Assembly (NCBI GenBank): GCA_016784195.1
Contig: JADHVE010000006.1
Span: 1-30,233, forward strand
Length of the DNA stretch: 30,233 nucleotides
Direction: 5' to 3'
From: Candidatus Woesearchaeota archaeon
GTDB taxonomy: Archaea; Nanobdellota; Nanobdellia; Woesearchaeales; GW2011-AR4
Positions 9,336 to 30,233 of the stretch are shown here, piece after piece. Numbering within the stretch: position 1 is the first letter of the stretch; the number at the start of each line of letters is the position of its first letter. Position numbers and translations under genes: made by a program. The notes under the pieces were generated by a model. The model worked only from the letters and a program-made list of their open reading frames with translations. It ran no database searches and had not been told where the DNA came from.

Positions 9336-9439
9336 CCAAGGGAGTTTCCACGCAACGCTACTAAAATCAAAACGTTTAAATAAAAACAAAATACAGCATA
9401 TAGGTGGTTTTGTAATAAACATCAACAACATATTAAAAA

Positions 9440-9910
9440 ATGAAATGTCCTTTTTGCAGCAATCCTGATACAAAAGTTCTTGATAAAAGGGAAACTGAAG
9501 AGCTGGAAGTAACCAGGAGGAGAAGAGAATGCTTAAAATGCAGAAAACGCTTTACGACTTACGAGAGGATTGAAACTGTTGAGCTGTTTGTTGTAAAAAA
9601 AGATGACAGAAGAGAGCAATTTAACTTAGATAAATTAAAAACAGGTATTATTAAAGCATGCGAAAAAAGGCCAATAAGCATGGAACAGATTGAGCAGGCA
9701 CTTAATAGTATAATGGCAGAGCTTAAAGAAAAAAACAAGAAAGAGATACAAAGCAGGGAAATTGGCGAGTTGCTGATGAGAAAATTAAAGAAGCTTGACC
9801 AGGTTGCTTATATAAGGTTTGCTTCTGTTTACCAGGATTTTCAGGATCTGTCTTCTTTTAAAAAAGAGGTAAGCAGATTAGAGAAAAAAAGGAAAATTAA
9901 TAAAAAATAA
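9440..9910 (+). CDS. nrdR: Transcriptional repressor NrdR (zinc ribbon plus ATP-cone)
   Basis: MKCPFCSNPDTKVLDKRETEELEVTRRRRECLKCRKRFTTYERIE followed by an ATP-cone-like region (VVKKDDRREQFNLDKLKTGIIKACEKRPIS). Confidence 0.85.
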   Translation: MKCPFCSNPDTKVLDKRETEELEVTRRRRECLKCRKRFTTYERIETVELFVVKKDDRREQFNLDKLKTGIIKACEKRPISMEQIEQALNSIMAELKEKNKKEIQSREIGELLMRKLKKLDQVAYIRFASVYQDFQDLSSFKKEVSRLEKKRKINKK

Positions 9911-9942
9911 AGTTTGTATAAAAAACCAATAAAAAAAGTTAT

Positions 9943-10034
9943 CATTAAAAATTAAAAAAAGCCAATTGTGTTCAATTTTTTATTTTTATAATTTTAATAA
10001 TAAACTAAAAAATAATCAAAGAACAAAACCAAAA
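9943..10034 (+). repeat. Copy A of a repeated upstream (promoter/leader) module; contains a TATA-like tract tttttatttttataattttaataa
   Basis: 9943-9965 and 9967-10034 are 100% identical to the reverse complement of 14074-14096 and 13935-14002. Lies between nrdR and the nitroreductase gene. Confidence 0.85.
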
Positions 10035-10041
10035 CAAAACA

Positions 10042-10057
10042 CAAATAATTGTGAATG
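10042..10057. promoter_or_regulatory. Dyad-symmetric motif CACAA-ATAA-TTGTG downstream of copy A; candidate transcription-factor site
   Basis: caaataattgtgaatg. Related sequences: cacaaataattgagt at 14011-14025 (inside the copy-B insertion) and cacataattgagtg at 20881-20894 (copy C). Confidence 0.4.
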
Positions 10058-10130
10058 TATAAAATTACTCAATGGTTTAAAATTAATGATAAAAACAATT
10101 AATGAAAAAACTGATTAAAAGGTGGTTTGG

Positions 10131-10676
10131 ATGAATGAAATCATAAAAACAATAAAAGAAAGAAGATCTATAAGGGCTTATGAAAGCAAGCCAGTTGAGA
10201 AAGAAAAGATTGATCAGATTTTAGAGTGCGGCATGTGGGGGCCTTCTGCAAAGAATGATCAAAAATGGCATTTTACTGTTATAACAAATAAAGAGATTCT
10301 GGGAAAAGTTACAGCAATGAGGGTTCAGGCAGAAACTGATAAGAACTCAATGATGGTACAAAGGGCAAAAACTATGGAAGATCCAGTTTTATATAACGCT
10401 CCACTATATGTTGTGATTACTGCTCCTGAGGATTACAATTATGCAGACATTGACGGATCAATAGCGGCGCATAACATGATATTAACTGCGCATTCTCTTG
10501 GCTTGGGAAGCTGCTATATTGGCACTGTAAAAATTTTGAAGGACAATAAAGAGTTTAAGAGATTATTGCAGGTTCCTGAAGGTCATAAAATTGTGATTAC
10601 AATTGTTTTTGGTTATGCAAAAGAAGAGCCAGAGCCCAAAGAAAGAAATCGAGATGTTGTGAGTTGGATTGAGTGA
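10131..10676 (+). CDS. Nitroreductase-family (NAD(P)H-flavin oxidoreductase-like) protein
   Basis: ERRSIRAY...KWHFTVI...SIAAHNMILTAHSLGLGSCYIG is typical of the nitroreductase fold. ATG at 10131 is preferred over the GTG at 10122 (GGTGG Shine-Dalgarno 6 nt upstream). Confidence 0.8.
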   Translation: MNEIIKTIKERRSIRAYESKPVEKEKIDQILECGMWGPSAKNDQKWHFTVITNKEILGKVTAMRVQAETDKNSMMVQRAKTMEDPVLYNAPLYVVITAPEDYNYADIDGSIAAHNMILTAHSLGLGSCYIGTVKILKDNKEFKRLLQVPEGHKIVITIVFGYAKEEPEPKERNRDVVSWIE

Positions 10677-10681
10677 TTGTT

Positions 10682-11719
10682 TTAAGGTTCCAAAACAACT
10701 TTCAAAGACTCTTTTGCATCTGAAACAATCTTAAAGCCTTCCTGAATTTTATCTAATGGCAGTTTATGAGTTATCAGGTTTTTAACATTTATTTTTTTGC
10801 TTTTTATCAAATCTAATGATTCCTGTAAATCTTTTGGCGCTGCCCCGTAGCTTGAGGTTACTGTTAATTCATTTCTCCAGAAATCTACAGTTGGGATTTC
10901 AATATTTTTGTTGGGTATGGCAAAAAACAATATTGTTCCTTTCTTGTCTATGCAGTTGAATGCCTGCTCAACTGCCTTTAAAGCTCCAGTGCAGATTATT
11001 ATCCTGTCTGCTTTTATATTTAAGCTGTCTTTTGATACACGAAAAAATTCCTTTGAAATTTTTTGCGTCTCAGAACTTGCTTTGTAATTTCTGCGGACAT
11101 CAATAACTTCATCTGCTCCAAACTCTTTTGCTTTTTTTAACCTGTATTCATCTATATCTGTTACAATAACTTTCGCTCCTTTTAGCTTTGCTAATTGTAT
11201 GTTTAACAATCCAGAGATTCCAGAGCCCAGGATTAAAACAATATGCTCTTTTTTTACATTAATAATCCTTTGGCCCCTGACGACGCAGGCTAAAGGCTCA
11301 ATCATTGTCCCTTCATCATAAGTTAGATTATCAAGTGAATAAGTTCCATTTTCTACATTTATTTTTGGGACTCTTACAAATTCAGAAAATCCTCCGGGGT
11401 CATAATTGCCTTGATGCAGGGTTTCACATGCTGTGGAGTTATCTTCTAAGCAGTATTTGCATTTATTGCATGGAACGTGATGGGAAACAAAAACTTTATC
11501 GTTAACTTTGAATTTGTCAGATTTAGATTCAATTACATCTCCTGCAATCTCATGACCCAGAACTCTTGGAGCTTTTTTGATTCTGTACCATTCCATAACA
11601 TCTGTTCCGCAGATGCCGGAAGCTTTTACTTTAATGAGAATTTCTCCTTCAGAAATTGTCGGTTTTGGAATTTCTTCTATTCTTATGTCATTGTTATTGT
11701 GATAGACTGCTGTTTTCAT
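10682..11719 (-). CDS. Zinc-dependent alcohol dehydrogenase family (threonine/sorbitol dehydrogenase-like medium-chain dehydrogenase)
   Basis: GICGTDV, GHEIAGDV, CxxCxxC structural-zinc motif (CNKCKYC), Rossmann motif LILGSGISG. Confidence 0.85.
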   Translation of the reverse strand: MKTAVYHNNNDIRIEEIPKPTISEGEILIKVKASGICGTDVMEWYRIKKAPRVLGHEIAGDVIESKSDKFKVNDKVFVSHHVPCNKCKYCLEDNSTACETLHQGNYDPGGFSEFVRVPKINVENGTYSLDNLTYDEGTMIEPLACVVRGQRIINVKKEHIVLILGSGISGLLNIQLAKLKGAKVIVTDIDEYRLKKAKEFGADEVIDVRRNYKASSETQKISKEFFRVSKDSLNIKADRIIICTGALKAVEQAFNCIDKKGTILFFAIPNKNIEIPTVDFWRNELTVTSSYGAAPKDLQESLDLIKSKKINVKNLITHKLPLDKIQEGFKIVSDAKESLKVVLEP

Positions 11720-11730
11720 AAGAACAAAAA

Positions 11731-12513
11731 TTATTTCTTTTCTTTTTCATAAATCTTATAGGCCTCATCAACCGGAATGTTGTCATGAACCACCGCTCTA
11801 ACAGCCTTTATCATCCCAATGGGCTTACTGCTTTGGAAAATGTTCCTACCCATATCAACTCCTGCTGCTCCTTTGTCAATTACGTTCTTTGCCATTGTTA
11901 AAGCGTCTTTCTCTCCTATCTTCTTTCCCCCTGCCATCACAACAGGTGTATTGCCGCAGGCTTCAACTACTTCTTCAAAGTTTTCGCAGTTATAAGTTTT
12001 GATTATATGGGCTCCTGTCTCTACACAGATTCTTGAAGCCAGCCCTAAATAGCGGGAATCTCTTGCCATATCTTTTCCAACTGCAGTTACTGCCAAAACT
12101 GGAATTCCATAATGTTCTCCCTCATCAACCAACTTTGCCAGATTAGTTATTGATTGTTTTTCAAATTCTCCCCCAATATAAACAGAGCAGGTTACTGCAG
12201 TTGCATTAATCCTGATTGCATTACAGATTGAAGTTGTGATAATCTCATTTGATAGTTCTTTTAGAATACTTTGTCCGCCTGAAACCCTTAAAACGATAGG
12301 GATGTCCATGTCTTCGCTTATCCAGTTCCTTATTGCGCCTCTTGTAATCATCAAAGCGTCTGCATAAGGCAATAAGGGATTGACTGTTTTTCCTAAGTTT
12401 CTTAAGCCGGTTGTTGGACCCTGAAAATAACCATGATCAACTGCTAACATTACGCATCTTTTTGTTTTTGGATTTATTATTCTTGCTAACCTGTTTTTCA
12501 TACCCCAATTCAT
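11731..12513 (-). CDS. DhnA-type class I aldolase (FbaB / DKFP-synthase / ADH-synthase family)
   Basis: MLAVDHGYFQGP near the N-terminus; Schiff-base lysine context IIKTY; overall length and pattern typical of the archaeal class I aldolase family. Confidence 0.75.
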   Translation of the reverse strand: MNWGMKNRLARIINPKTKRCVMLAVDHGYFQGPTTGLRNLGKTVNPLLPYADALMITRGAIRNWISEDMDIPIVLRVSGGQSILKELSNEIITTSICNAIRINATAVTCSVYIGGEFEKQSITNLAKLVDEGEHYGIPVLAVTAVGKDMARDSRYLGLASRICVETGAHIIKTYNCENFEEVVEACGNTPVVMAGGKKIGEKDALTMAKNVIDKGAAGVDMGRNIFQSSKPIGMIKAVRAVVHDNIPVDEAYKIYEKEKK

Positions 12514-12585
12514 TTTGAATAACCTCCGATAAAGTTTTTATTGAAGTAAGCTATAAGCGTATATAAAGGTTTTGCCGAAAAGAAT

Positions 12586-13335
12586 TTATTTGATTTTAGG
12601 TATAGTATTAATTAACAATTGTGTGACTTTCCTGACATTCTTATCAAACACTTCCAGAATCTCTTCCCAAGTTACTGGCTTTTCATCTTCTTTCCAGCAA
12701 TCATAGTCTGTTGACATTGCAATAGCTGCGTAGGGAATTCCTGCTTCATTTGCTAAAATGCATTCAGGGGCTATTGACATATTTATAACATCTGCTCCCC
12801 AAATCCTAAACATTTTTGACTCTGCTCTTGTGCTAAACCTGGGACCTTCGATTGTAATAACAGTTCCTTTTTGGTGAGTTTTTATGCCTGATTCCTTGGC
12901 TGTTTCAATCAAAGTATTTCTTAATTGTTCATCAAAAGGTTCAGGCATTGCAGTATGCTTTGCGTTTTCAGCTCCACCAGGGAATTTATCAAAAAAAGTT
13001 ATTTTTCTGTGGCGTGTAAAATCGATAAATTGATCTAATATTATAAAATCTCCTCTGCCTATTTCTTTCCTTAAACTGCCGCAGGCTGTTGTTGCCAGTA
13101 TATATGCGCAACCAGATTTTTTCAAAGCCTGTATGTTTGCTCTGAAATTAACTCCTGATGGAGGTATTGAATGGTCAAGCCCGTGCCTTGCCAACAAAAC
13201 AATGTCTTTATCTCCTATTTTTCCAGTTTTAACCGTTACTTCTCCATAGTCTGTTTTGATTGTCTCGTCTTTAACATTAGAAATAATATCCGGATTGTCT
13301 AATCCAGAACCGCCGATAATTCCGATTTTTACCAT
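12586..13335 (-). CDS. mtnP: 5'-methylthioadenosine / purine nucleoside phosphorylase (MTAP/PNP family)
   Basis: MVKIGIIGGSGL...LLARHG...ACGSL... pattern of MTAP. The start at 13335 lies 1 nt after the apt stop; the track start at 13350 would overlap apt. Confidence 0.85.
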   Translation of the reverse strand: MVKIGIIGGSGLDNPDIISNVKDETIKTDYGEVTVKTGKIGDKDIVLLARHGLDHSIPPSGVNFRANIQALKKSGCAYILATTACGSLRKEIGRGDFIILDQFIDFTRHRKITFFDKFPGGAENAKHTAMPEPFDEQLRNTLIETAKESGIKTHQKGTVITIEGPRFSTRAESKMFRIWGADVINMSIAPECILANEAGIPYAAIAMSTDYDCWKEDEKPVTWEEILEVFDKNVRKVTQLLINTIPKIK

Positions 13336-13336
13336 G

Positions 13337-13909
13337 TTATTCTCCCTCAAATTCTATCATGGTGAATATTTTGTAATCTTTTAATTTTTCTTTGCCTTTT
13401 AGATCAGGCAGGTCGATGATAAAAGCACATTCAAGAATTTCTCCCCCTAATTGTTCAATAAGCTGAGTTGCAGCATTAACTGTTCCTCCTGTTGCAATCA
13501 GATCGTCTACAAGCAAAATTTTCTCTCCTTTTTTTATTGCATCTTTGTGGATTTCCATCTTGTCTTTGCCATATTCTTTTTCAAACTCTGCAGAAATGGT
13601 TTTATAAGGTAGTTTTCCGGGCTTTCTGATGGGAACAAAGCCAATGCCTAATTTATAAGCTAAAACTGCTCCGAAAATGAAACCTCTTGATTCAATGCCA
13701 ACGACCTTGTCAATCTTAATATCTTTGTATCTGTTGTATAGTTCGTCGCAGACATACTTAAATGCTTCTCCGTCTTGTAAAAGAGTTGTGATGTCTCTGA
13801 ACATCACTCCTTTGATAGGCCAGTGAGGCACTGTTCTTATTTTTTCTTTGATGTTCACTAAAACCACTCCAATAAATTTTTTGCCAATAGTAATTTTACA
13901 CAATAACAA
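13337..13909 (-). CDS. apt: Adenine phosphoribosyltransferase
   Basis: FRDITTLLQDGEAF...VVGIESRGFIFG...ILLVDDLIATGGT is canonical APRT. The start is a non-ATG codon (TTG at 13909, or a GTG a few codons in). Confidence 0.85.
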   Translation of the reverse strand: MLLCKITIGKKFIGVVLVNIKEKIRTVPHWPIKGVMFRDITTLLQDGEAFKYVCDELYNRYKDIKIDKVVGIESRGFIFGAVLAYKLGIGFVPIRKPGKLPYKTISAEFEKEYGKDKMEIHKDAIKKGEKILLVDDLIATGGTVNAATQLIEQLGGEILECAFIIDLPDLKGKEKLKDYKIFTMIEFEGE

Positions 13910-13934
13910 CCATTTAACAACTATTTGTAAATTT

Positions 13935-14096
13935 TTTTGGTTTTGTTCTTTGATTATTTTTTAGTTTATTATTAAAATTATAAAAATAAAAAATTGAACA
14001 CAACCATGTTCACAAATAATTGAGTTCCGGTTTTGGTTGTATTGGCTGTTTTTATTTAATGAAATTTTTATTATTGGCTTTTTTTAATTTTTAATG
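13935..14096 (-). repeat. Copy B of the repeated upstream module (inverted relative to copy A), interrupted by a 70-bp insertion (14004-14073); sits upstream of apt and overlaps the ZPR1 3' end
   Basis: 13935-14002 equals the reverse complement of 9967-10034 (68/68) and 14074-14096 equals the reverse complement of 9943-9965 (23/23), both checked by eye. The insertion carries a degenerate copy of the adjacent CACAA..TTGTG motif. Confidence 0.85.
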
Positions 14097-14616
14097 TGCT
14101 TTTCTCTGCTTTGTCTGAAATTATTGCTGAGTTTCCTGAAGGGTCTTCAATTATTAGTTTTGAGCTTTCCTGACCCCACATTATCCTGGTTATTTTTTTC
14201 AGTAGATTTTTTGCTTTTGTCCTGTCTTCTTTTTCTTCTGCAGTGTCCCTTAATGTCTCTATCTGATGTTTTACCCTTTTGAAGATTCCTTCAATGTTTG
14301 TTATAAATCCCTGAGAAGCAGGACCTGGGGTTATTGTGGTTATGTGGGGAATCTTAATCGTGGCTTCTGAGCTTTTGACAACCCTTGTGTTTAGGTCTTT
14401 CTCTGATGAAATCTCAAAAGTATATTTTACCGGCTCTTTTCTTTCTGTGGCTTCTATATCTGCCTTGTGGTACTTGCAGTTAGAACAAGTCATTGAAAAG
14501 AGAAAAACCTTGCCGAAGTACGGAACTTCAGTCTCCTCTTCCATCAGTGTCAATGCTTTTTCGTGGCAAAACGGGCAAGGCTGATTATCCATAATGTCGA
14601 CTTGAGTTTTTGACAT
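14071..14616 (-). CDS. ZPR1-type zinc-finger protein
   Basis: CPFCHEKAL...(32 aa)...CSNCKYHK zinc-ribbon pair followed by a beta-rich domain, characteristic of the ZPR1 domain. The last 8 codons plus the stop are encoded by repeat copy B. Confidence 0.8.
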   Translation of the reverse strand: MSKTQVDIMDNQPCPFCHEKALTLMEEETEVPYFGKVFLFSMTCSNCKYHKADIEATERKEPVKYTFEISSEKDLNTRVVKSSEATIKIPHITTITPGPASQGFITNIEGIFKRVKHQIETLRDTAEEKEDRTKAKNLLKKITRIMWGQESSKLIIEDPSGNSAIISDKAEKSTLKIKKSQ

Positions 14617-16181: not shown

Positions 16182-16493
16182 TTGCTTTTTCTGTGAAAAA
16201 AAATATCTATCATTAAAAAATTACCAATAAGAGCAGAAACATGATAGGATCTAGTTGTGAATTGTTTTTATGATTTTATGTATTATTTATTTTTTGAATA
16301 ACAAAAAATATTTTTATTTTAAAAGTAAAAAAAGACATAAAGAATAGAAACAAAAAAAACACAAATAAATGTTATAGTGTAAATTCACCTAGGGTAAAAA
16401 AATTAATTGAAAATATGTGAAATATTTTGAGATAATACATGCTTTGCAAAAATTACAAATATTTATAAATACTTATGTTTATATTGTAGAAAA

Positions 16494-17420
16494 ATGAGGG
16501 TGGAAATAGATAAAATACATAAAGATAGCTATAGCAAGCTGGCTGATGACGTGAATAAGAAGTCTAAGAGCTTTAAATCGAAAGACTACAAAGCAAGCTT
16601 GAGTTATGAAAGCTTATTGTTAAACAAGGACATTTCAGTTGAGAAAAAAAAGAAAGCCTTGATTGAAAGGCTGCATAAATTAATTATAAAGACCTTTTCA
16701 ATTGATTTAAGCAAGATAAAGTCAGAAAAAAAGATTTTAGAGGTTTTGAAACATAATATAAGAGTATTAAGGAAGATTGTTGATAAACTGAAGGATATAA
16801 ATTATTACCTTGAAGAAAGCTTTTTAGCAGAGCTTGGGCTGATAAAAAGAAGCTTAAACATTAATAAAAACAAAAGCCCTGAAAGATTAATAGAGAATGC
16901 AAAATTTTCATTGAGCAAGCAGTATTTGTGCAAATTAGAGCATACTACCTATAAACTAATTGAAAAAATAATATTATTTGATAAAAAATTATTAAAGGGC
17001 TATAAGTCAAAAGAGGAGAAGATTATTGCTAAAGAGAAGGTTGTAATAAAAGACATAAATAATGTTTTAAAAAAGCAGTCAGAGCTTTTCAACCATTTAG
17101 AGGCAAAACTTCCCCCCCCGAGCAAAATAAAGCCTTTACTGCTGAAAAAAAAGATTTTCAACCAATGGATACCTGTAGTGTTGACATTAATGACTGCATG
17201 TAACAGCGAATATAGAAAAGAAGAGATGATTTTTGAAAAATTAAAGAAAAACAAGAAAATAAAACAGATAATCAATAAAAAAATATCATCTTTAGAGAAA
17301 GAAAAAGCAGGCCTGATAGGGATAAAGCAAGAAAGAGTTATGGGAAGGGCAAAATTAGGCGGTTTAGAAAATGAACTAAGGATTATGTTCCACGATTTTA
17401 ATGCTGTTAAAAACTTATAA
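16494..17420 (+). CDS. Hypothetical lysine-rich (coiled-coil-like) protein inserted between rpoF and the DUF655 gene
   Basis: 308-aa ORF preceded by a 310-bp AT-rich gap. No recognisable domain. Contains a C8 homopolymer at 17112-17119. Confidence 0.5.
   Translation: MRVEIDKIHKDSYSKLADDVNKKSKSFKSKDYKASLSYESLLLNKDISVEKKKKALIERLHKLIIKTFSIDLSKIKSEKKILEVLKHNIRVLRKIVDKLKDINYYLEESFLAELGLIKRSLNINKNKSPERLIENAKFSLSKQYLCKLEHTTYKLIEKIILFDKKLLKGYKSKEEKIIAKEKVVIKDINNVLKKQSELFNHLEAKLPPPSKIKPLLLKKKIFNQWIPVVLTLMTACNSEYRKEEMIFEKLKKNKKIKQIINKKISSLEKEKAGLIGIKQERVMGRAKLGGLENELRIMFHDFNAVKNL
17112..17119 (+). repeat. Poly-C homopolymer (8 C) inside the 16494..17420 CDS
   Basis: ttcc ccccccc gag encodes LPPPS. 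A C/G homopolymer of 8 is rare in roughly 30%-GC DNA. Confidence 0.9.
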
Positions 17421-19035: not shown

Positions 19036-19227
19036 AAACTTAACTTTTTTAGTAAAATATAATTAAAAATTAAATTTTTTCTCGTCGGTAAAACCATTTT
19101 TTATTTTTTAAAAATATTTTTAGTGTTTTTTTTAAAAAAATCCTCGACGACAAAATGAGAAATAGAAATGTTTAAATACTATTTATTAAATAAATTAAAT
19201 TAAAAAAGGTGATTTTTTACAAGTAAA

Positions 19228-19653
19228 ATGGTAGAATTCGGGAAACATGTCACGATTGACGCATCTGGTTGTAATCAAAAAAGATTAACTAACCATGCTT
19301 TGATTTATGATTTACTGAATCAACTTCCAGGCCGAATCGGTATGACTAAGATGACATTACCTTATGTCGTCAAATGGATGGATAAAGGGGCTAAAGTTCC
19401 GGGTATTTCTGGTTTTGTGATGATTGCTGAAAGCCACATAAGCGTCCATACTTTTCCTGAAAAAGATTATGTTTTTATTGATGTTTTTTCATGTATGAAT
19501 TTTAATGTGAAACAAGCTATCAAGTTATTGGTTGATTTTTTTGGAGCAAAAAAAAACACCACAAAAATCGTTGCACGAGGTATGGATTTCCCAAGAAGCC
19601 ATACAGATTATATCTATTCTCCTCAAGAAATTGAGTTAAATGCTACAAGATAA
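19228..19653 (+). CDS. speH: S-adenosylmethionine decarboxylase proenzyme (pyruvoyl-dependent, small SpeH-type)
   Basis: MIAESHISVHTFPE contains the ES self-cleavage site of SpeH-class AdoMetDC; length 141 aa. An arginine-decarboxylase paralogue of the same fold cannot be excluded. Confidence 0.8.
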   Translation: MVEFGKHVTIDASGCNQKRLTNHALIYDLLNQLPGRIGMTKMTLPYVVKWMDKGAKVPGISGFVMIAESHISVHTFPEKDYVFIDVFSCMNFNVKQAIKLLVDFFGAKKNTTKIVARGMDFPRSHTDYIYSPQEIELNATR

Positions 19654-19673
19654 TTTCTTTCAAGGTTTAAACT

Positions 19674-20681
19674 ATGAAAACAGGGGTTTTGTATAATACC
19701 ATCAAAAGTTCTGAGACTCGAGAAGTCGAAGAAGATTTGATGGAAATGGCTAATAAGATTAAAAAGTCTTTAGAAAACAACGGCCATGAAGTTTCTTTAA
19801 TTAATGCTGATAAGAACCTTTTTAAAAATTTAAACAAAAAAAATATTGAATTTGTGTTTAATGTTTGCGAAAGGTTTAATGGCAATAGCTTATTTGAACC
19901 CCATGTTGCTGCTATGCTTGAGCTTTTCGGTGTTTCTTTTACTGGCTCTGATTATGTAGCCTTGTCTGAATGTAATAATAAAATAAAAACAAAAGAAATT
20001 TTAACAGTTAACCTAATGCCTACTCCAAAATACCATGTTTTTTGTTCTCCTGATGAAAAATTAAATCCCGGATTGAAATTTCCTTTGATTGTCAAGCCAA
20101 AACAGCAGGAGAACAGCATAGGCATTACAAAAGACGCTGTCGTTTATGATGAAAAAAGTTTGAGAGAAAGGATTAAGTATGTTAATGATGAGTTTAAAGA
20201 AGAAGCTTTGGTTGAAGAGTTTATTAAAGGCATTGATGTTGAGGTCGGGATAATCGGTAATGGTGATGATTTATTTATCCTGCCACTTGCAAAAGTCAAT
20301 TATGAAAATCTTTCAGATGCTGATGAAAATAAGATTTTTTGTTATGAATCAAAATGGGACTTAAAATCCAAGAACTACGGGGATTATGTAAAAGCTGATC
20401 TGTCTGAAGAGGTAGAAGAAAAATTAAAAAGATTGGCGGTAAAAATTTACAAAATTTTTAATATTAAAGATTATGGGAGAATTGATTTCAGGCTGACTGA
20501 AAATAATGAGCCTTATGTTATTGAAGTTACGGCTAATCCCGGGCTGAGTAAGGTTTGCTCAACTCTGGAATCAGCAGAATGGATTGGCTTGAGTTATAGA
20601 GAATTGGTCAATAAAATTTTTGAAAGCGCTTTAAACAGGTATGATATCAGCAAAGAAGAAGCAATAAAAATTTACCCATAA
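19674..20681 (+). CDS. ATP-grasp ligase of the D-alanine–D-alanine ligase-like family
   Basis: Ddl-like N-terminal domain (GHEVSLINADKN), central FPLIVKPKQQENSIGIT, ATP-grasp core EEFIKGIDVEVGIIGNG...EVTANPGLS. Confidence 0.75.
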   Translation: MKTGVLYNTIKSSETREVEEDLMEMANKIKKSLENNGHEVSLINADKNLFKNLNKKNIEFVFNVCERFNGNSLFEPHVAAMLELFGVSFTGSDYVALSECNNKIKTKEILTVNLMPTPKYHVFCSPDEKLNPGLKFPLIVKPKQQENSIGITKDAVVYDEKSLRERIKYVNDEFKEEALVEEFIKGIDVEVGIIGNGDDLFILPLAKVNYENLSDADENKIFCYESKWDLKSKNYGDYVKADLSEEVEEKLKRLAVKIYKIFNIKDYGRIDFRLTENNEPYVIEVTANPGLSKVCSTLESAEWIGLSYRELVNKIFESALNRYDISKEEAIKIYP

Positions 20682-20815
20682 ACAAAAATCCAATAAAAAA
20701 AGGCCATTAACAAAAAAATTATCATCAAAGATTAATAAAGAGTTCAAATAATAAAAAGATACTCCAAAATACCTGACAGGGCACAAACAGAAACACAATT
20801 AGTGGCTGGTGCGGC

Positions 20816-20957
20816 TGTGTTAATTTTTATTATTAAAAATTTTAAAAACCGAAAAGATTATCAAAAAACTAAAAACTACCCACATAATTGAGTGCGTGCA
20901 ATAAAACCTAATGAAAAAAAATAATAACTTAAAATTAATGGTAAAAAATAATTAATG
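20816..20957 (+). repeat. Copy C (diverged, about 70-85% locally) of the repeated upstream module, upstream of the DUF2156-like gene
   Basis: tgtgttaatttttattattaaaaatttt... parallels copy A's tgtgttcaattttttatttttataatttt...; cacataattgagtg versus cacaaataattgtg; ttaaaattaatggtaaaaaataattaatga (20929-20958) versus ttaaaattaatgataaaaacaattaatga (10078-10106). Confidence 0.6.
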
Positions 20958-21893
20958 ATTAAAGATTTAGGGGCGTGTGAATTGGAAGAAATAACAGATA
21001 CAAACAAATACAAAGGATATATTCAAACAGCAATAAGAAAATATGGGCATTGCGCAGAGCATAACTATTATCATTACCATCACTATGAAGATGATAAAGA
21101 AAAAAATATTTTCTTTAAGCTAGAAGGCAGCAAAGGGATATTATCCAGCTATGATAAAAAAAATGATTTGCGATATTTGTTTCCTTCAGGGATACTAGCT
21201 CCTGAAGAAGAGCGTTTTGATATACTGGTTAAGTTTTTGGATTATATTCTAAAAAAGAAAAAAGGAGAAAAACTATTTGTTGAAGTCAATGGGGAGTTTA
21301 GGAAAGAAATATTGAGGGGATTAAAAGATTCCAGACAATACAGGGCTTGCTCCAGCCCGTTTATCCTTTACTGGCCTTTGTATAACATGTCTAAGTTCGA
21401 TTCTAAACTAAAAGGCAAGAACTGGAAAAAATTGAGGAACATAAGGAACAGGTTTTATAAGAAGAATAAAGTCAAAGTTGTCGACAGCAAAAAAGTTCCT
21501 AAAGAACAGCTAACAAGGATATTAGATGCATGGCTGAAAAGAAGGAATGCCCATGATCGGGTGGAAAAGCATTATTTTGAAAATCTTATTGAAAACAATC
21601 TAAAAGGGGTTGAAATGGCAAGGACATTAATTGTTAATGGCAATCCATGCTCAATAACCGCTGGATGGAAAATACCCAATAGCAAAGGATACTATTCTCA
21701 TGTCGGGATTGTGGATTATTCTTGTGAAGGTCTTGGAGAAGTGGCTAATATTGAAGACTTAAAACTGTTAAAAAGAAAAAAATATGATTATGTTGATTTT
21801 GGCGGCTCAGATAAAGTTTTGCTTTATTTCAAGAAAAAGTTCAAACCTGAAAAAATCTATAAGACTTATATTTTTTCTATAGTCAAAAGATAA
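20955..21893 (+). CDS. DUF2156-like protein (homologue of the catalytic domain of aminoacyl-phosphatidylglycerol synthase MprF/LysX and VlmA: aminoacyl-tRNA-dependent aminoacyltransferase), with no membrane domain
   Basis: C-terminal ...VDFGGSDKVLLYFKKKFKPEKIYKTYIF resembles the conserved C-terminal block of DUF2156; 312 aa with no TM segment. Assigned from memory, moderate confidence. Confidence 0.5.
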   Translation: MIKDLGACELEEITDTNKYKGYIQTAIRKYGHCAEHNYYHYHHYEDDKEKNIFFKLEGSKGILSSYDKKNDLRYLFPSGILAPEEERFDILVKFLDYILKKKKGEKLFVEVNGEFRKEILRGLKDSRQYRACSSPFILYWPLYNMSKFDSKLKGKNWKKLRNIRNRFYKKNKVKVVDSKKVPKEQLTRILDAWLKRRNAHDRVEKHYFENLIENNLKGVEMARTLIVNGNPCSITAGWKIPNSKGYYSHVGIVDYSCEGLGEVANIEDLKLLKRKKYDYVDFGGSDKVLLYFKKKFKPEKIYKTYIFSIVKR

Positions 21894-22239: not shown

Positions 22240-23583
22240 TTGGAACAAGTGAACGACATTACTAGTATTTTAGAATCAGACAAAACTCAGGTTAACGTAG
22301 AGGGAGCCATAAACCCAATTATTATTGGAGGGCCGCATCGCACAGCCAAAAGCGAAACTTTAAACGCACTAGAACAGTATTATCCTGATTCTTATACTCG
22401 AGGGAAGAAATGGAAGTTTAGAATTGGAGGTTCATGGCCAGATGATGGTGAAAAAGACAGTATAATTGTTAAAACTAAAGAAGAAGCTGAGCAATTAATC
22501 GAAAAAGGCAAAATTGGAACCCATTACTGGGGTCCAGATACCTGGCATCTAGTTGATTTGGAAGATGCTTTGAAGAAGTCTAGTTCTCATAAGGTGTATA
22601 TTTCAGATGTTCATGTAGGTGTTGTAAATATGACTGAGTTTTTTAATCTTGAAATTGGTAGAAAGCCAATTAGTTTTTTATTCTATACTAACCCTTTACT
22701 TGTAGAAACAAGATTGAAGGAAGCAAATATTCCTAATGTGCAGATAGAGACACGATTAAGAGGCGTTGGAGAACAATTCGCGATTTTTAGGGAAAATGCG
22801 GAAGAATATCTTTTCTTGATGAAAATTCCATGGCCTCCAATCAATTCTAGTATTTCATTACCAGGGCCAGCTGAAGCTAAGCAAACTAGAGAAGTTAAAG
22901 GATATGCAGACAGATTAGATTTTCTTGTCAAGGCATATGAAAAATATTATGATTTATCAAGAGATAGAGATTACCTAGGGATTCATCATGCATATATCAA
23001 TGATATTTCAACCAAGTTGCATGGTGGACATTTAGGGGACCTGAAAGTAAAGATTCAAGATGGAATCAAAGTTAAGATAGACTTAGAATCAGAATTGGAA
23101 AAATATACTTCTCCAGATAATCCAGACTCAGTGAGATTATCTCAGAAAATCAAGGAATTAGTAAAATCTGTGGAAATTAAGAGATACCAAAAAGCTAATG
23201 GGAGATATTCCTTGTGGATAGATTCCCTGGTGGACCCCTATGATTCCAAAGATTGCGATATTGACCCGGAAGATGTAGTTCTTGATCTGCTGGAGCTAAG
23301 GTTAGGGAAACCCACCCTGAGAAATAAGATGAACAATCAAAATTTTGGGAACATATCCCATCACGCGTTAGTCAATGTTACAGGATCTACTTTAAGAGAC
23401 GGAGCCATGTATTCTTTAGGTGATCAATTACTTACAGATCATACTCACCCGTCCCTTTCAATAGGTTTTTTAAGCACTAATGGTAAGCCCCATTTTATGT
23501 ACGGGTTGGATGGAGAACAATTAACTAAGATGCAGCAGCATCTCAATGGAAAATCCAATACCTACACAGATATGCCTTACTAA
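22240..23583 (+). CDS. Hypothetical 447-aa protein with a deviant Walker-A-like motif (IIGGPHRTAKSE)
   Basis: Long ORF with a non-ATG start (TTG at 22240 or GTG at 22249, after a GGGGG Shine-Dalgarno). No recognisable domain apart from the GxxxxAKS motif; His-rich. Confidence 0.6.
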   Translation: MEQVNDITSILESDKTQVNVEGAINPIIIGGPHRTAKSETLNALEQYYPDSYTRGKKWKFRIGGSWPDDGEKDSIIVKTKEEAEQLIEKGKIGTHYWGPDTWHLVDLEDALKKSSSHKVYISDVHVGVVNMTEFFNLEIGRKPISFLFYTNPLLVETRLKEANIPNVQIETRLRGVGEQFAIFRENAEEYLFLMKIPWPPINSSISLPGPAEAKQTREVKGYADRLDFLVKAYEKYYDLSRDRDYLGIHHAYINDISTKLHGGHLGDLKVKIQDGIKVKIDLESELEKYTSPDNPDSVRLSQKIKELVKSVEIKRYQKANGRYSLWIDSLVDPYDSKDCDIDPEDVVLDLLELRLGKPTLRNKMNNQNFGNISHHALVNVTGSTLRDGAMYSLGDQLLTDHTHPSLSIGFLSTNGKPHFMYGLDGEQLTKMQQHLNGKSNTYTDMPY

Positions 23584-24934: not shown

Positions 24935-26668
24935 CTAACTACAAATAGCAGTTACAATCTGTATTGGCTTTCCTTTGTACTTGCTTATCCTTATATTCTT
25001 GATTAAATTTTTGCCTTTTGGGCAGCTAGGGACTACTTTTGTTTTAGCCGTAGTAAAAGGCTCTCCATCACAGCATTCAATTTTCTGAGTTGCATTATAA
25101 TCCACCACCCATCCTTTTTTTGACATGTCGCATTTATTTTTAGCAGTGTCATCAAAAAACCTGCATTCATTTCCTGCCTTATCTGCAAATCCAGCGCATC
25201 CCTTATGACACCTTTCATCAAGCAAATAGGTGCAGTCTGCTTCACATACAAGGCCGTAGATTAAATTAAAATTTACCTGTATGGCTGTTTTTGGCTGTAA
25301 ATTTATTGTTTTTGTTTTAGGCACATAATCTCCCTTGGATGTTATCAAATCAATTGTTCCGCAGGATACATTGTTTATCTCATAAGAGCCGTCAGACTCT
25401 GTATAATCGTCTGATGCTATCAGTGATGATTCTTTAAAAACCTCAACTTTCCCTTCTGCTAAAGGTTGGTTATTCTCATCAAAGACATAGCCGGTTATTT
25501 TTCCATTGCAGTCAGGGTCATCACAATCAATTATACCATCATAATCATCGTCAATGCCATTATCGCAAATCTCGTCACTGGCTTCAACCCATTCCCCTTC
25601 AGAATGGGCAACACAGACTTCAATAAATCCGTCTTTGTCAATATCTTCAGTGTGGCCACCAATATAACATTCATTGCCATAAACGCATTCATCTGTATTT
25701 GTGCAGCATTGAGTGTCTGTTATATCTATTTCACAAGCCGTATAATCCCCTCCAGCTGGCTCTGTAGTAGTGTGGCAGGTTCCATAATAATTGATAATCT
25801 TATTCTTCCACTCTACCGGATAAAGTTTATTGCACATGCTTGTCCAGTCAGATTCAGAATATTTTTTGCAGTTTCTTTTGTAAAGGTTGGCAGAACAAAC
25901 ACAATTTCCGTCAAGGCATTCATAGCCTGCTCCGCATGGAATAGTATTCCATTCTAAGCAGCCATCATAATTGTAGTCACTGCAGATTTGATAGCCAGCA
26001 ACACCAGAACATTTTCTTGAACCTGAGGGTGAACATGCATTATTGCACTGAGTGTCTTCAGGATAAGAACAGCTAGAATCAGGGTACCAATAACATGCTC
26101 CATCAGAATGGCAGGTACACCTGTTTCCGGTTAAGCAGTAGTTTTCTTCATTTAGGTTACAAGAAGAGGCATTTTTACATTCCAGTAGTTTATCCAAATA
26201 TGTTCCCTGAGGGCAGCCTTCTTTGCAGCAAACTTTTAAATCATAAGAATCACAGTCTCCAATATGTGCATTTGACGGGGATGAGATTGAAGCTAAGCAG
26301 GTATAACCAGCAAGGCAGGAACTGTCAGAATGAACGCAGTCTATATTGTTTGATGCTGAAATCCTTGCAGCATCAGCGTAATTTGCATTATTATATGTTT
26401 GAACGTGAGCATTATATTTCCCAGAAAGCCAAAGAAAAGGCGTTCCAGTGCTGGAATTTAAGTCTTTTAATCCTGAGCAGCATATGCTCTTGGGAAGCTC
26501 ATATTCCTGAAGAGAGGCATGTGAATTTTCCCCTGAATATAATCCAAGAAATTTTACTTCATTAATTCCGCAATAATCAGAATCTTTTACTTTGCAGTCT
26601 AACTGGGCATTAACACTTAAGATTTCAAATAAGAGCAATAAGAATAATAACTTCTGAATTTTTTTCAT
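24935..26668 (-). CDS. Secreted, extremely cysteine-rich protein with an acidic Asp-rich (putative Ca/Cu-binding, MopE-like) motif and a carboxypeptidase-regulatory-like domain
   Basis: Signal peptide MKKIQKLLFLLLLFEILSVNAQ; more than 60 Cys arranged in EGF-like spacing; EICDNGIDDDYDGIIDCDDPDC followed by GKITGYVFDENNQPLAEGKVEV...SDGSYEI (CarbopepD_reg-like). Confidence 0.75.
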   Translation of the reverse strand: MKKIQKLLFLLLLFEILSVNAQLDCKVKDSDYCGINEVKFLGLYSGENSHASLQEYELPKSICCSGLKDLNSSTGTPFLWLSGKYNAHVQTYNNANYADAARISASNNIDCVHSDSSCLAGYTCLASISSPSNAHIGDCDSYDLKVCCKEGCPQGTYLDKLLECKNASSCNLNEENYCLTGNRCTCHSDGACYWYPDSSCSYPEDTQCNNACSPSGSRKCSGVAGYQICSDYNYDGCLEWNTIPCGAGYECLDGNCVCSANLYKRNCKKYSESDWTSMCNKLYPVEWKNKIINYYGTCHTTTEPAGGDYTACEIDITDTQCCTNTDECVYGNECYIGGHTEDIDKDGFIEVCVAHSEGEWVEASDEICDNGIDDDYDGIIDCDDPDCNGKITGYVFDENNQPLAEGKVEVFKESSLIASDDYTESDGSYEINNVSCGTIDLITSKGDYVPKTKTINLQPKTAIQVNFNLIYGLVCEADCTYLLDERCHKGCAGFADKAGNECRFFDDTAKNKCDMSKKGWVVDYNATQKIECCDGEPFTTAKTKVVPSCPKGKNLIKNIRISKYKGKPIQIVTAICS

Positions 26669-27381
26669 TTGAACTCTGCCTCAAATGACTTAAAATTCAA
26701 CAGCAATGAATTTATTGTTCCTGTAAAAGATGAATAACCCCTGACAGTTACAGCAATATCCCCAAAGAAATTACTAATAGCAAAATTTTCTCCTGCTAAA
26801 TTAAAGCTTGCTTTGTTGCTTATTTCGACAGTTCCTAAGGCTAAACAATTGAAGTTTTCAACACTCACATCTTTGATTATTAAGTCTCCGCTTTTTATTG
26901 TAAGTATTGCCTCCTCGGAATTATCTGATGTCAGTTTTGTATAATCAGCTTCAAGCTTCAGGAAATTGCCTTTCAATACAATCAGCGAATTATTGAAAAT
27001 AAGCCTGCCCCGGAAGTTAACCAGATACATAGGATTTTTACTTTCAAGAATCATAGTGCTTTTTGGAGTGCCAACTAAAACTGAAGAGCTATTTATTGCC
27101 AAGTCTTTATTTTTAACGTCAAAACTGTAATGATCGCAGTATAATTCACTTTTTAACTGCAAAAGATTGCTGAAGGTTTCTTCAGCTAATACAGCTTCCT
27201 GTTCTATTGTAAACTCTTCATTGCTGTTTTTTAATTGTAAAGGCACTCCATTTTTTTTTTCAATCGGCTCCAGTCCCTGTTCTATTATGGTCCTGTCGTT
27301 GTAGCTTGAGCTTATAGCCCCTACAGAAATAATCAAAAGCAGGAAAAATAAGACTATGTTTTGAATCACATGGTTTTTCAT
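26665..27381 (-). CDS. Secreted or membrane-anchored beta-rich protein, co-transcribed with the Cys-rich protein
   Basis: N-terminal hydrophobic segment MKNHVIQNIVLFFLLLIISVGAISS (I prefer this start over the track's 27408). Its stop overlaps the downstream gene's start by 4 nt. Confidence 0.6.
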   Translation of the reverse strand: MKNHVIQNIVLFFLLLIISVGAISSSYNDRTIIEQGLEPIEKKNGVPLQLKNSNEEFTIEQEAVLAEETFSNLLQLKSELYCDHYSFDVKNKDLAINSSSVLVGTPKSTMILESKNPMYLVNFRGRLIFNNSLIVLKGNFLKLEADYTKLTSDNSEEAILTIKSGDLIIKDVSVENFNCLALGTVEISNKASFNLAGENFAISNFFGDIAVTVRGYSSFTGTINSLLLNFKSFEAEFK

Positions 27382-27588
27382 TGTAGAATGAAAACCCGAA
27401 TCTGGCATTAATATATATTAAGTTTAGAAAAAATGGAAAAACTCTTTTAATAAAAATTAACCAAATTATATAATTTATAAATATTATATAAAAAACTGTT
27501 AAAACAAAAAGTTTATAAATAAACCAATTTACTAAATATTTACTTCTAAGCTGATGTTAATTTCAATTTGCTAAAAAGAGAGGAGAAT

Positions 27589-28464
27589 ATGCCGTATAAT
27601 ATAGTGATACCTGAAACTGATTGTGAAGCTGTTTCAACAAAGGACATAGTGATTTCTTCGTTGAGCAGAGACTGGCCCCTTAATATCCAGCAGCTCTATA
27701 ACCGGACAAAAAAAACATTCTTGAAAAATGTCACTTACCAGGCTACATATAAGGCTGTGAGGTCGCTGCATGATGAGGGGGTGCTGATTAAACAAGGAAA
27801 AGATTATTCTATATCCCAAGTGTGGCTGGAAGAAACTAAAGAATATCTGAATTTTATTTCAGGGTTAATCGAACGAAAAGAGAAAAACCCAAAGAATTTT
27901 GAAGAGAGCCTGATTATGAACAGGAACTTGCAGCTTTTTGAATTTGAGAAGTTTAAAAATTTGTACAAGTTTTTGAGAAAGTTTGAAGATAACCTGATAT
28001 TGGCTAAAAATGAGAACTCTTCATTTTATTGGGTAGTCAATCACTGTTATAAGGCACTATTTCAGCCTTCTCTTGAATTTGAGTACATGGAGAAGCTGAA
28101 GAAAAAAGGAATTAAACTACACATACTGTGCAATGGAGATACCTCGCTAGATAAATGGTGCAGGAATTTCTACGAAAAAAACGGAGCTGTTATGAAAATA
28201 GACGCTGGTTTTGGGATATCAAGGCATATAAATATCTATAACGAGTTTATTATCGAAATTTTTTTTAGCCCGGAATTTCAGAAAATTATCCATGGAGTTT
28301 ATAACTCTGCCAGTTCTGTCCATGCAGTGGATATTGCTGAGATATTGAAAGAAATATCTAAAGATGACAGTAAGATACTGGTCATTATAAACAAAAATAA
28401 AAGATTAGTAGATTATATGAAGAAGAGTGTATTGGGATATTTTGATGAGAGTATAAGTTCCTGA
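27589..28464 (+). CDS. Hypothetical protein with an N-terminal winged-helix-like domain
   Basis: GAGGAG Shine-Dalgarno before the ATG at 27589. ...LSRDWPLNIQQLYNRTKKTFLKNVTYQATYKAVRSLHDEGVLIKQGKDYSIS resembles wHTH regulators of the TrmB/PadR type; the remainder is unknown. Confidence 0.55.
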   Translation: MPYNIVIPETDCEAVSTKDIVISSLSRDWPLNIQQLYNRTKKTFLKNVTYQATYKAVRSLHDEGVLIKQGKDYSISQVWLEETKEYLNFISGLIERKEKNPKNFEESLIMNRNLQLFEFEKFKNLYKFLRKFEDNLILAKNENSSFYWVVNHCYKALFQPSLEFEYMEKLKKKGIKLHILCNGDTSLDKWCRNFYEKNGAVMKIDAGFGISRHINIYNEFIIEIFFSPEFQKIIHGVYNSASSVHAVDIAEILKEISKDDSKILVIINKNKRLVDYMKKSVLGYFDESISS

Positions 28465-29731: not shown

Positions 29732-29901
29732 AGTTGACCATTAATTTATTGTTAATTATTGTATTATTGATTAATTGGCTATTATGTGATTTAACACTAA
29801 CACAATTATTTGTTTTATTTTAAAATGAATAAAATAAAAAATATCAAAACGACCACTGCTAATTATGATTCTGATGGTGTTTTATGGGTAACTTTTAATA
29901 A

Positions 29902-30233
29902 TTATTTTTTCTCTTCTTTTACTTCAGGTTTTTTTTCTTCCTTAGTCTGGGTTTTTTCTTCTTTAACTTCTTTCTTTGGCTCTTCTTTCTTTTCTTCTTT
30001 AGCTTCTGGTTTTTCTTCTTTAACTTCTTTCTTTGGCTCTTCTTTCTTTTCTTCTTTAGCTTCTTTTGCTCCAAAGATCTCTGTTAACTTTTTAGCCCCT
30101 TCTTTTGTGACTTTAAGGTTTATCTGAATGATGTGTTCATTGATTTTATGACCGCAGACTGTTTTTCTTCTTTTTATGCCTTTGTCAGCTCCCTTAAAAC
30201 CGACTCCCCCTAAAAGGATGATTTTTTTCCTTA
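29902..30233 (-). CDS. Partial CDS (C-terminal ~110 aa; N-terminus beyond the window end) with a lysine/glutamate-rich repetitive tail
   Basis: Minus-strand frame open from the window edge to TAA at 29904-29902: ...RKKIILLGGVGFKGADKGIKRRKTVCGHKINEHIIQINLKVTKEGAKKLTEIFGAKEAKEEKKEEPKKEVKEEKPEAKEEKKEEPKKEVKEEKTQTKEEKKPEVKEEKK. The plus-strand ORF 29810..30127 in the track is its antisense shadow. Confidence 0.55.
   Translation of the reverse strand, partial: RKKIILLGGVGFKGADKGIKRRKTVCGHKINEHIIQINLKVTKEGAKKLTEIFGAKEAKEEKKEEPKKEVKEEKPEAKEEKKEEPKKEVKEEKTQTKEEKKPEVKEEKK
29950..30076. repeat. 57-bp tandem direct repeat (about 2.2 copies) inside the terminal partial CDS
   Basis: ttaacttctttctttggctcttctttcttttcttctttagcttct occurs at 29963 and again at 30020; it encodes the duplicated 19-aa unit KEEKKEEPKKEVKEEKPEA. 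Confidence 0.8.

Follow-up and report, generated by a model that had tools for sequence, protein, structure and literature searches.

The subject of this work is a noncoding spacer in a 30,233-nucleotide stretch of DNA from a Candidatus Woesearchaeota archaeon (contig JADHVE010000006.1 of assembly GCA_016784195.1; the whole stretch is hereafter called the window), which lies between an ATP-grasp gene and a DUF2156 gene downstream of AdoMetDC and which we term copy C. Judging from its sequence, copy C is probably a decayed member of a lineage-restricted, dispersed intergenic repeat behaving as a propagated terminator-plus-promoter cassette. Because this repeated cassette is found upstream of many unrelated genes, we surmise that promoter DNA has been copied around a tiny archaeal genome, rather than that the genes behind it form a dedicated regulon for S-adenosylmethionine (SAM) and polyamine metabolism.

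Results

Comparison of copy C with copies A and B

A preliminary description of the window had proposed that copy C is a diverged duplicate of a module carried by two other spacers, copy A (between NrdR and a nitroreductase) and copy B (between ZPR1 and APRT), unless its alignment to these scored no better than shuffled AT-rich intergenic sequence. Compared with shuffled as well as real AT-rich sequence, C scored far above both. The Smith-Waterman score of A with C was 63 vs. 27.5±4.1 for 1000 dinucleotide shuffles (z 8.7; 0/1000 as high), and that of B with C was 50 (z 5.6; 1/1000 as high). Upon scoring all 196-nt windows on both strands of the 30 kb against A, only C (63) and a further candidate, copy D (65), stood out, with the next at 43. 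As a control with real DNA, we used 3180 window-strands of ≤28% G+C from 85 related Woesearchaeota loci; 63 was reached or exceeded by 2/3180 against A and by 0/3180 against C, and both of the former proved to belong to a true paralogue, located in front of AdoMetDC in the closest relative. By blastn, A and C align in three collinear segments (79% over 47 nt, 67.5% over 154 nt and 90% over 30 nt). Since profiles built from window copies are circular for A to D, a family hidden Markov model (HMM) was built from metagenome copies only, without window sequence; its top matches in the window were A (E 6.7e-10), B (6.2e-6) and C (1.3e-3), with noise starting from E ~2. By these data, C is a genuine, though diverged, duplicate of the A/B module.

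The blocks quoted earlier for copy C (tgtgtt, cacataattgagtg and ttaaaattaatggtaaaaaataattaatga) were all found where they had been placed (Table 1). The module at this site is real, but its extent is larger than had been proposed, with homology beginning ~135 nt before 20816, directly after the ATP-grasp stop at 20682, and extending as far as the start region of DUF2156. Copy C retains a hairpin, a T-run, the TATA-like TTTTAAAA box and AAAAAACT. Pairing in the hairpin is possible between ACAG and CTGT and between CAC and GTG, and it leads straight into the T-rich stretch, a candidate oligo-T terminator of the AdoMetDC/ATP-grasp transcript; the block homologous to the T-rich/A-rich tract is kept in A, B, R and the family consensus. 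Support for pairing ahead of the T-run is suggestive only, with 82% of cells paired vs. 70% in shuffled sequences among 9 family members (in a structure derived from these same sequences) and one compensatory UA/AU swap, common to C and the family member L147. Of the palindrome, which has the form CRCAAAYAATTGTGA in the family, C shows a CAC-N8-GTG remnant only. Block 3 of C is shared with A (10077-10105; 27/30 identical with one indel) and resembles the AATGAT boxes of the family leader. The mechanical start of DUF2156, ATG 20955, falls inside block 3 and is probably wrong; TTG 20982 appears likelier because homologues of ~303 aa (mostly 300-307), with 97% query coverage, align from that codon, as does the N-terminus of the DUF2156 protein on the relative's locus L093. 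An upstream open reading frame (ORF) or leader peptide in block 3 was considered and discarded, as the putative peptides of A (MIKTINEKTD), C (MVKNN or a 14-aa form) and the relative (MMDKKIIIKID) differ in frame and length although the DNA aligns.

Ancestry and age of the copies

Copies A and B, which are inverted relative to each other, are identical over 24 + 70 bases, the 70-nt perfect core lying at 9966-10035 (+) and 14001-13932 (-) and the 24-nt piece representing the ZPR1 3' coding end in B. Outside this core, identity drops abruptly, thus pointing to recent gene conversion or recombination. C is ~68% identical to A, with indels, and keeps both the hairpin module and AAAAAACT (absent from A) and block 3 (absent from B), all of which the relative's spacer and the family consensus possess as well. 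The proposal that C is the older duplicate was borne out by these features.

The closest genome in GTDB is GCA_964585935.1, with 76% identity for DUF2156 and for ZPR1. On its locus L013, ZPR1 is followed by a 302-nt spacer and APRT-MTAP-DeoC, and this spacer is homologous to the module (nhmmer E 3.6e-7), scoring 62 vs. C (z 6.2) and 49 vs. B. In a third species (L026; RIFCSPLOWO2_12_FULL_38_19), the ZPR1-MTAP spacer carries the core. The 15-mer CRCAAAYAATTGTGA was found nowhere in 1.25 Mb of relatives' loci except at the orthologous ZPR1 spacers of GCA_964585935.1 and L026. Because orthologous spacers in relatives carry the module or this 15-mer, sequence comparison places the ancestral module site at the spacer between ZPR1 and the APRT/MTAP operon, i.e., at copy B.

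Several additional observations were made on these spacers. The A and B cores flank a 3.9-kb block (10036-13931) comprising nitroreductase-ADH-DeoC-MTAP-APRT; inversion of this segment is one possibility, homogenisation of the repeats by gene conversion another. Two further assemblies of the organism (L002 and L003) break inside the B core, starting at ~13966 and ~13935 in window positions. The mechanical start of APRT inside copy B (13859-13909, -; TTG 13909) is probably wrong, the likeliest being GTG 13858 (173 aa, as on L001), and so is that of the nitroreductase inside copy A (10122-10130, +), for which ATG 10131 is likeliest. In the relative L015, the ZPR1-MTAP spacer (10565-10705) has a G+C-rich inverted repeat, ccagtgcttatgcg ... 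cgcataagcactgg, ~110 nt apart, a different, possibly structured element at the same genomic position.

Copy sites in the window and its relatives

At the site of C, the relatives' loci L007 (77% DUF2156 identity), L008 (of GCA_964585935.1; 76%) and L093 (81%) keep a gene for a 180-aa CxxCxxCC-type protein between ATP-grasp and DUF2156, which overlaps both of its neighbours in L007 and L008. No remnant of the 180-aa gene was found by tblastn in the C spacer. Going by gene order, C occupies the place of a lost 180-aa gene within the AdoMetDC–ATP-grasp–X–DUF2156 operon. The operon itself, with overlapping genes for AdoMetDC, a Ddl-like ATP-grasp protein, the 180-aa CxxCxxCC protein (PF03692-like) and DUF2156/LPG_synthase_C, spans 8034-10921 in L007, 3978-6863 in L008 and, with the 180-aa member lost, 19228-21893 in the window, and its composition in the relatives suggests an undescribed pathway modifying polyamine or using decarboxylated SAM.

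Two more sites in the window merit consideration. The copy D region (~16226-16410) scores 65 vs. A, with z of 6.7 vs. A and 5.9 vs. B, and the spacer between RpoF and the 308-aa gene measures 312 nt in the window vs. 82 nt in L007 and 118 nt in L008. Given that the native promoter of the 308-aa gene (caaaaattacaaatatttataaatac, 16448-16473) is conserved downstream of D, this copy would be an insertion that did not replace the gene's own promoter. The placement of C and D is specific to the window's lineage. Copy E is borderline, with scores of 42-46 and 79% identity to B over 52 nt. Accordingly, C is indeed a copy, but the total of three given in the preliminary description has to be raised to at least four, probably five, in the window, including D and the possible E.

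The spacer upstream of AdoMetDC differs between the two species. In GCA_964585935.1 (L008), it is 640 nt long and its distal part contains a composite decayed copy, which scores 79 vs. the genome's own ZPR1-APRT spacer and 71 vs. A; its proximal 200 nt are the conserved native promoter region. The window's own AdoMetDC spacer (19036-19227) holds only the latter, with no module copy. Within it, the G+C-rich islands ctcgtcggtaaaa and cctcgacgacaaaa (19081-19093 and 19141-19156), together with cctttaaatact and aaaaaaggtgattt, are conserved in the window, L007 and L008 (pairwise scores 136-166), and these islands are probably the native promoter/operator of the AdoMetDC operon, unrelated to the repeat family.

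Distribution of the family

Scanning public metagenome contigs with the pattern CRCAAAYAATTGTGANTGTR yielded 61 loci, of which ~25 (~15 distinct sites) show homology (E 1e-23 to 1e-4) that extends for ~130 nt on the 5' side of the pattern and for 60-100 nt on its 3' side. Most of these metagenome copies are located on AT-rich VAPA/VAPB/VAPC contigs, and only two represent the ZPR1-APRT locus. In 1.27 Mb from ~85 relatives, matches to the family HMM were limited to the window species, L026 and GCA_964585935.1 (three module hits within 31 kb), which confines the family to a narrow clade. A same-strand ORF begins 70-173 nt after the palindrome in 13 of the 14 resolvable copies (binomial probability under random orientation ~0.001). 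As judged by Pfam, the genes behind the metagenome copies encode a class I/II aminotransferase, UDP-glucose dehydrogenase, DUF7502, lumazine synthase, FttA/aCPSF1, an M24 peptidase, a U32 peptidase, an NAD-dependent epimerase, a GCD14-type tRNA methyltransferase and YjeF_N, while window copies also precede the lysine-rich 308-aa gene (D) and perhaps aIF2-gamma (E).

The palindrome is intact in A, which harbors the sole perfect version among the window copies (10040-10053), and decayed in B, C and D; strict CAC-W8-GTG is found only in A. Outside the copies, a relaxed form with ≤1 mismatch occurs once, at 10402 in the nitroreductase coding region. With the palindrome decayed in B, C and D and no independent intergenic sites outside the copies, the shared motif probably reflects duplication by descent and not independently evolved regulon sites.

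Genomic setting

The window has a G+C content of 32% and encodes the archaeal markers L15e, L21e, RpoF/Rpb4, ZPR1, SepF, aIF2-gamma and S6e; its source is a Woesearchaeota (DPANN) archaeon, in accord with its DUF2156 protein being NCBI MBL7054330.1 of Candidatus Woesearchaeota archaeon, and several ENA and Logan assemblies hold contigs near-identical to it. Sizeable ORFs without a Pfam match lie at 22240-23583, 4310-5725, 16494-17420, 26665-27408 and 27568-28464. The 447-aa gene directly 3' of DUF2156 is one ORF of this type, and the lysine-rich 308-aa gene, also without a Pfam match, is kept beside RpoF in many Woesearchaeota. The S6e gene ends in a lysine/glutamate-rich tandem-repeat tail (29912-30070, -, in the window; 19040-19230 in L001), the repeat number of which is uncertain or variable because one assembly has a run of N there.

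Table 1. Features of the window and elements of the family consensus (window positions; consensus elements are listed 5' to 3')
Feature	Positions	Strand	Description
Copy A	9911-10130	+	NrdR-nitroreductase spacer; blocks at 9967, 10040-10053 and 10077-10105
Copy B	13859-14070	-	ZPR1-APRT spacer
Copy C	20682-20981	+	Entire spacer from ATP-grasp stop codon to probable DUF2156 start; diverged repeat-family member
Copy D (probable)	16182-16447	+	~230-nt insertion between RpoF and native promoter of 308-aa gene
Copy E (possible)	29732-29903	-	S6e-aIF2-gamma spacer; exact 13-mer ACAAATAATTGTG in common with A, plus GTGTTAAATCAC
C, hairpin module	20781-20822	+	GCACAAACAGAAACACAATTAGTGGCTGGTGCGGCTGTGTT; aligned to family HMM positions 28-70
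C, tgtgtt block	20816-20821	+	
C, T-rich/A-rich tract	20816-20849	+	tgtgttaatttttattattaaaaattttaaaaa; holds the TATA-like TTTTAAAA box
C, AAAAAACT	20863-20870	+	Matches strongly conserved family block AAAAAACTCAG
C, decayed palindrome	20881-20894	+	CACATAATTGAGTG (block quoted as cacataattgagtg)
C, block 3	20929-20958	+	ttaaaattaatggtaaaaaataattaatga; direct repeat AATTAATGG-N8-AATTAATGA
NrdR	9440-9910	+	Directly 5' of copy A
Nitroreductase	from 10131 (probable ATG)	+	Start after aaGGTGG; 3' of copy A
ADH, DeoC-type aldolase		-	Between nitroreductase and MTAP
MTAP	12586-13350	-	
APRT	13337-13858	-	
ZPR1	14071-14616	-	
RpoF, 308-aa lysine-rich protein, DUF655, M50-like peptidase, zinc-ribbon protein		+	Right of ZPR1
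AdoMetDC	19228-19653	+	
ATP-grasp/Ddl-like ligase	19674-20681	+	
DUF2156/LPG_synthase_C	20955 or 20982 to 21893	+	Pfam PF09924; revised start TTG 20982 with GGGGCG 6-12 nt upstream; mechanical ORF begins at ATG 20955
447-aa protein		+	After DUF2156
Consensus 1			Hairpin + T-run in three interchangeable forms: GGTGCACAAACACTGCACAATTAGTTGTGAGCGTG.ATGTGCAGTCGTTTTTT; GAAAATTCCT...AGGAATTTTCCTATTT; CCACCCGTCTATGACGGGTGGTTCTTT
Consensus 2			A/T tract with TTTAAAA(C/T) TATA-like box
Consensus 3			AAAAAACTCAG, ~25-29 nt after the TTTAAAA(C/T) box in intact copies
Consensus 4			~10-nt variable stretch ending AAAG
Consensus 5			15-bp palindrome CRCAAAYAATTGTGA
Consensus 6			nTGTGGAACATAAAYAATGATT (TGTGGAACATAAAYAATGATT after palindrome)
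Consensus 7			A-rich leader with AATGAT boxes, then (where seen) GGTGG-type Shine-Dalgarno and start codon

Discussion

Our comparison of the copies indicates that cassette copies from the ancestral ZPR1-APRT/MTAP spacer have been placed into other spacers, nearly always facing the next gene, and that one of them, C, has taken the place of the 180-aa gene inside the AdoMetDC–ATP-grasp–X–DUF2156 operon. At this position, the hairpin and oligo-T stretch of C would end the AdoMetDC/ATP-grasp transcript and its TATA-like box would start a new one for DUF2156. In intact copies, control would be exerted by a dimeric DNA-binding protein, for which the palindrome is a candidate site, lying at or just after the transcription start. 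With regard to the latter, CTCAG in the family copy L127 comes 29 nt after the TTTAAAA(C/T) box begins (as counted in this copy only), which fits the usual archaeal distance between TATA box and start site and would place CTCAG at or near the start. As its own palindrome has decayed, C probably no longer responds to the palindrome-binding protein; in view of the surviving hairpin, T-run, TTTTAAAA and AAAAAACT, we expect that, through C, DUF2156 is uncoupled from the AdoMetDC/ATP-grasp transcript and has its own, probably unregulated, promoter. As for how the copies may have spread, recombination, gene conversion, an unseen transposition system and template switching are candidates.

Several points weigh against this interpretation. 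Terminator and promoter activity are deduced from sequence only, and read-through from the AdoMetDC promoter could account equally well for expression of DUF2156. There are two TATA-like candidates, TTTAAAA(C/T) 5' and ATAAAYAAT 3' of the palindrome, and in the window the copies differ in how far the palindrome lies from a TATA-like box (45 nt in A, adjacent in E). Neither D (E 2.2) nor E (E 6.7) reaches significance with the independent family HMM. The conservation of the palindrome among the metagenome copies is a matter of ascertainment because the palindrome itself was the search bait, and the contigs carrying these copies may come from more than one genome. Finally, the search for copies covered ~40 kb of this genome, ~10 kb of which was added via a search for aIF2-gamma and held no additional copy; a corresponding search for the M29 peptidase gave no match.

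The family resembles what has been described as putative mobile promoters (PMPs), a documented phenomenon in which homologous promoter regions precede genes that are not homologous (Matus-Garcia, Nijveen & van Passel 2012, PMC3488235), with upstream regions aligning over ≥50 nt at ≥80% identity (PMC3488235). Copies A and B exceed this threshold, with 93% identity over 90 nt including 70 identical bases. Alignments of C with A or B fall below it (best segments 67.5% over 154 nt, 79% over 47, 90% over 30 and 74% over 65), and on these alignments C is a distant, extended member of a PMP family only. The flanks of the copies are non-homologous on both sides, with NrdR, ZPR1, an ATP-grasp protein, RpoF and S6e upstream and nitroreductase, APRT, DUF2156, the 308-aa protein and aIF2-gamma downstream, in addition to the 10 Pfam families behind the metagenome copies. 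Like PMPs, the cassette consists of homologous noncoding DNA within ~150-250 nt upstream of the start codons of unrelated genes, has a conserved core along with distant members, and varies in presence between relatives; the predicted promoter-like signs comprise the orientation in 13/14 copies, the 70-173 nt to the start codon and the TATA-like boxes. Unlike PMPs, it carries a 5' hairpin and T-run, and its host is a DPANN archaeon, with promoters of the TATA/BRE (B recognition element) type. In the literature, we found no such family described for Woesearchaeota or other DPANN archaea.

A related and more tentative idea, to which we give a rather low probability, is that a global transcription factor of one Woesearchaeota clade has CRCAAAYAATTGTGA and its flanks as its operator, with the spreading cassette recruiting genes such as those of 5'-methylthioadenosine/adenine salvage and polyamine synthesis into its regulon. 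If so, the family would represent a regulon growing through promoter propagation in a DPANN archaeon that has very few regulators, and the genes behind decayed copies such as C would be ones that have escaped from the control of the global factor.

The cassette also has features of mobile DNA. Modular BOX elements of Streptococcus pneumoniae are small bacterial repeats of a comparable kind. Promoter- or terminator-carrying small repeats also include Correia/CREE of Neisseria and ERIC of Yersinia, as cited in PMC3488235. All of these are, like our family, short, multi-copy, intergenic, modular and hairpin-forming, and can in principle end or start transcripts and split operons; they have terminal inverted repeats and, in the case of Correia, a defined TA target, neither of which was found here, and the present family differs from them by its strong orientation bias towards the downstream gene. 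That the family is a non-autonomous transposable element, akin to miniature inverted-repeat transposable elements, which inserts into spacers and has only incidental promoter-like features, strikes us as unlikely. Such an element would accord with multiple short copies (~200-250 nt), with their variable presence between close relatives at the C, D and AdoMetDC sites, with the composite of two modules in the relative's AdoMetDC spacer and with a modular build using alternative hairpin modules. What argues against it is that five copies show no terminal inverted repeats beyond A-run/T-run pairings of 70-88%, that there are no recognisable target-site duplications or sharp common ends, the homology instead fading into the flanking gene boundaries (in this comparison, the empty D sites of L007 and L008 are too diverged to place junctions and the C site replaces a gene), that 13/14 copies face the downstream gene, that no transposase-like match was seen among 20 window ORFs scanned against Pfam, and that the exact A/B-core 32-mer had no match in JGI metagenomes.

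The preliminary description had viewed the three units behind the copies (MTAP plus APRT, a cluster headed by AdoMetDC, and the nitroreductase) as a regulon for SAM and polyamine by-product metabolism, i.e., the module would be an operator/promoter kept by one coordinating regulator. We consider this quite improbable. In its favor, module copies precede both APRT-MTAP-DeoC (L013) and the AdoMetDC operon (L008) in GCA_964585935.1, three species keep the palindrome at the orthologous spacer downstream of ZPR1, and C is situated inside the AdoMetDC cluster. However, C is not in front of that cluster, as had been stated, but follows AdoMetDC and ATP-grasp, while the real AdoMetDC spacer of the window has no copy and L008 has, upstream of AdoMetDC, a decayed composite copy lying distally of the native promoter, which is conserved. 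Moreover, the family precedes at least 10 functionally unrelated genes, with D and E preceding a lysine-rich protein and aIF2-gamma, and the decayed palindrome of B, C and D has no independent intergenic counterpart outside the copies. The homology also spans whole spacers, including the A-rich filler, and therefore speaks for descent rather than site selection.

With nrdR directly upstream of A, we also considered the palindrome as an operator of NrdR. The NrdR box has 16 bp with conserved C4, A6, A8, T9, T11 and G13 and occurs as two boxes 15-16 or 26-27 bp apart (PMC13584703). The palindrome is similarly an AT-centred, partial palindrome of ~16 bp in a C...G frame, but ACACAAATAATTGTGA matches 4/6 positions (C4, A6, T11 and G13), with TA in place of the central AT, the C copy matches 2-4/6, and no partner box is present at offsets 31, 32, 42 or 43 from any module palindrome; the candidate was thus rejected. 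A separate pair of candidate NrdR boxes precedes nrdR itself (ATG 9440), namely ATACAGCATATAGGTG at 9391-9406 and CAACAACATATTAAAA at 9423-9438 (+), each with 5/6 positions and 32 nt start-to-start. This pair would be archaeal NrdR autoregulation; NrdR-like box pairs number four in 30 kb, compatible with chance.

It is very improbable that the conserved core functions as a transcribed RNA, be it a cis-regulatory leader (a riboswitch-like or protein-binding 5' untranslated region) or a small RNA gene. The 60-nt core would be transcribed if the upstream TTTAAAA(C/T) is a TATA box, and the palindrome, with a 5' arm of CACAA or CGCAA against a constant TTGTG 3' arm, has the variation that A-U or G-U pairing would tolerate. 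Nevertheless, three approaches gave no sign of a structured RNA: Rfam 15 gave no gathering-score match in the window (at E ≤5 only unrelated weak snoRNA matches elsewhere) and nothing at E up to 1 on intact family members; folding z-scores were +0.92 for C, -0.43 for A and mostly -1.7 to 0 for the sense strand of 15 cores, no better than shuffles; and RNAalifold returned only the 5-bp palindrome stem, with no compensatory changes. C/D-box sRNA (small RNA) was likewise set aside, as the ATGATGA and CTGA-like strings of some copies are not conserved in the family alignment. Lastly, a chance resemblance among AT-rich spacers of common layout (A-rich, T-run, TATA), conceivable in a region of only 20-26% G+C where any pairwise comparison yields numerous short A/T matches, is virtually nil and was rejected on the shuffles (z 8.7), on the top rank of C among the real windows here and the 3180 AT-rich controls, on the independent HMM and on common blocks without low complexity (TGTGTT, CACAATTAG and TTAAAATTAATGRTAAAAA).

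Our findings carry a caution for annotation, in that start codons inside such cassettes (e.g., ATG 20955 and TTG 13909) can be artefacts. They also supply a concrete, testable cis-element, the palindrome with its flanks, and ~20 loci on which promoters and terminators of uncultured archaea can be studied. In DPANN archaea, with their tiny genomes, short spacers and small number of regulators, the construction and rewiring of transcription units is barely understood; the family described here probably exemplifies one route, whereby a whole terminator/promoter spacer is copied to new places and, in the case of C, would split the conserved AdoMetDC–ATP-grasp–X–DUF2156 operon at the point where a gene was lost.

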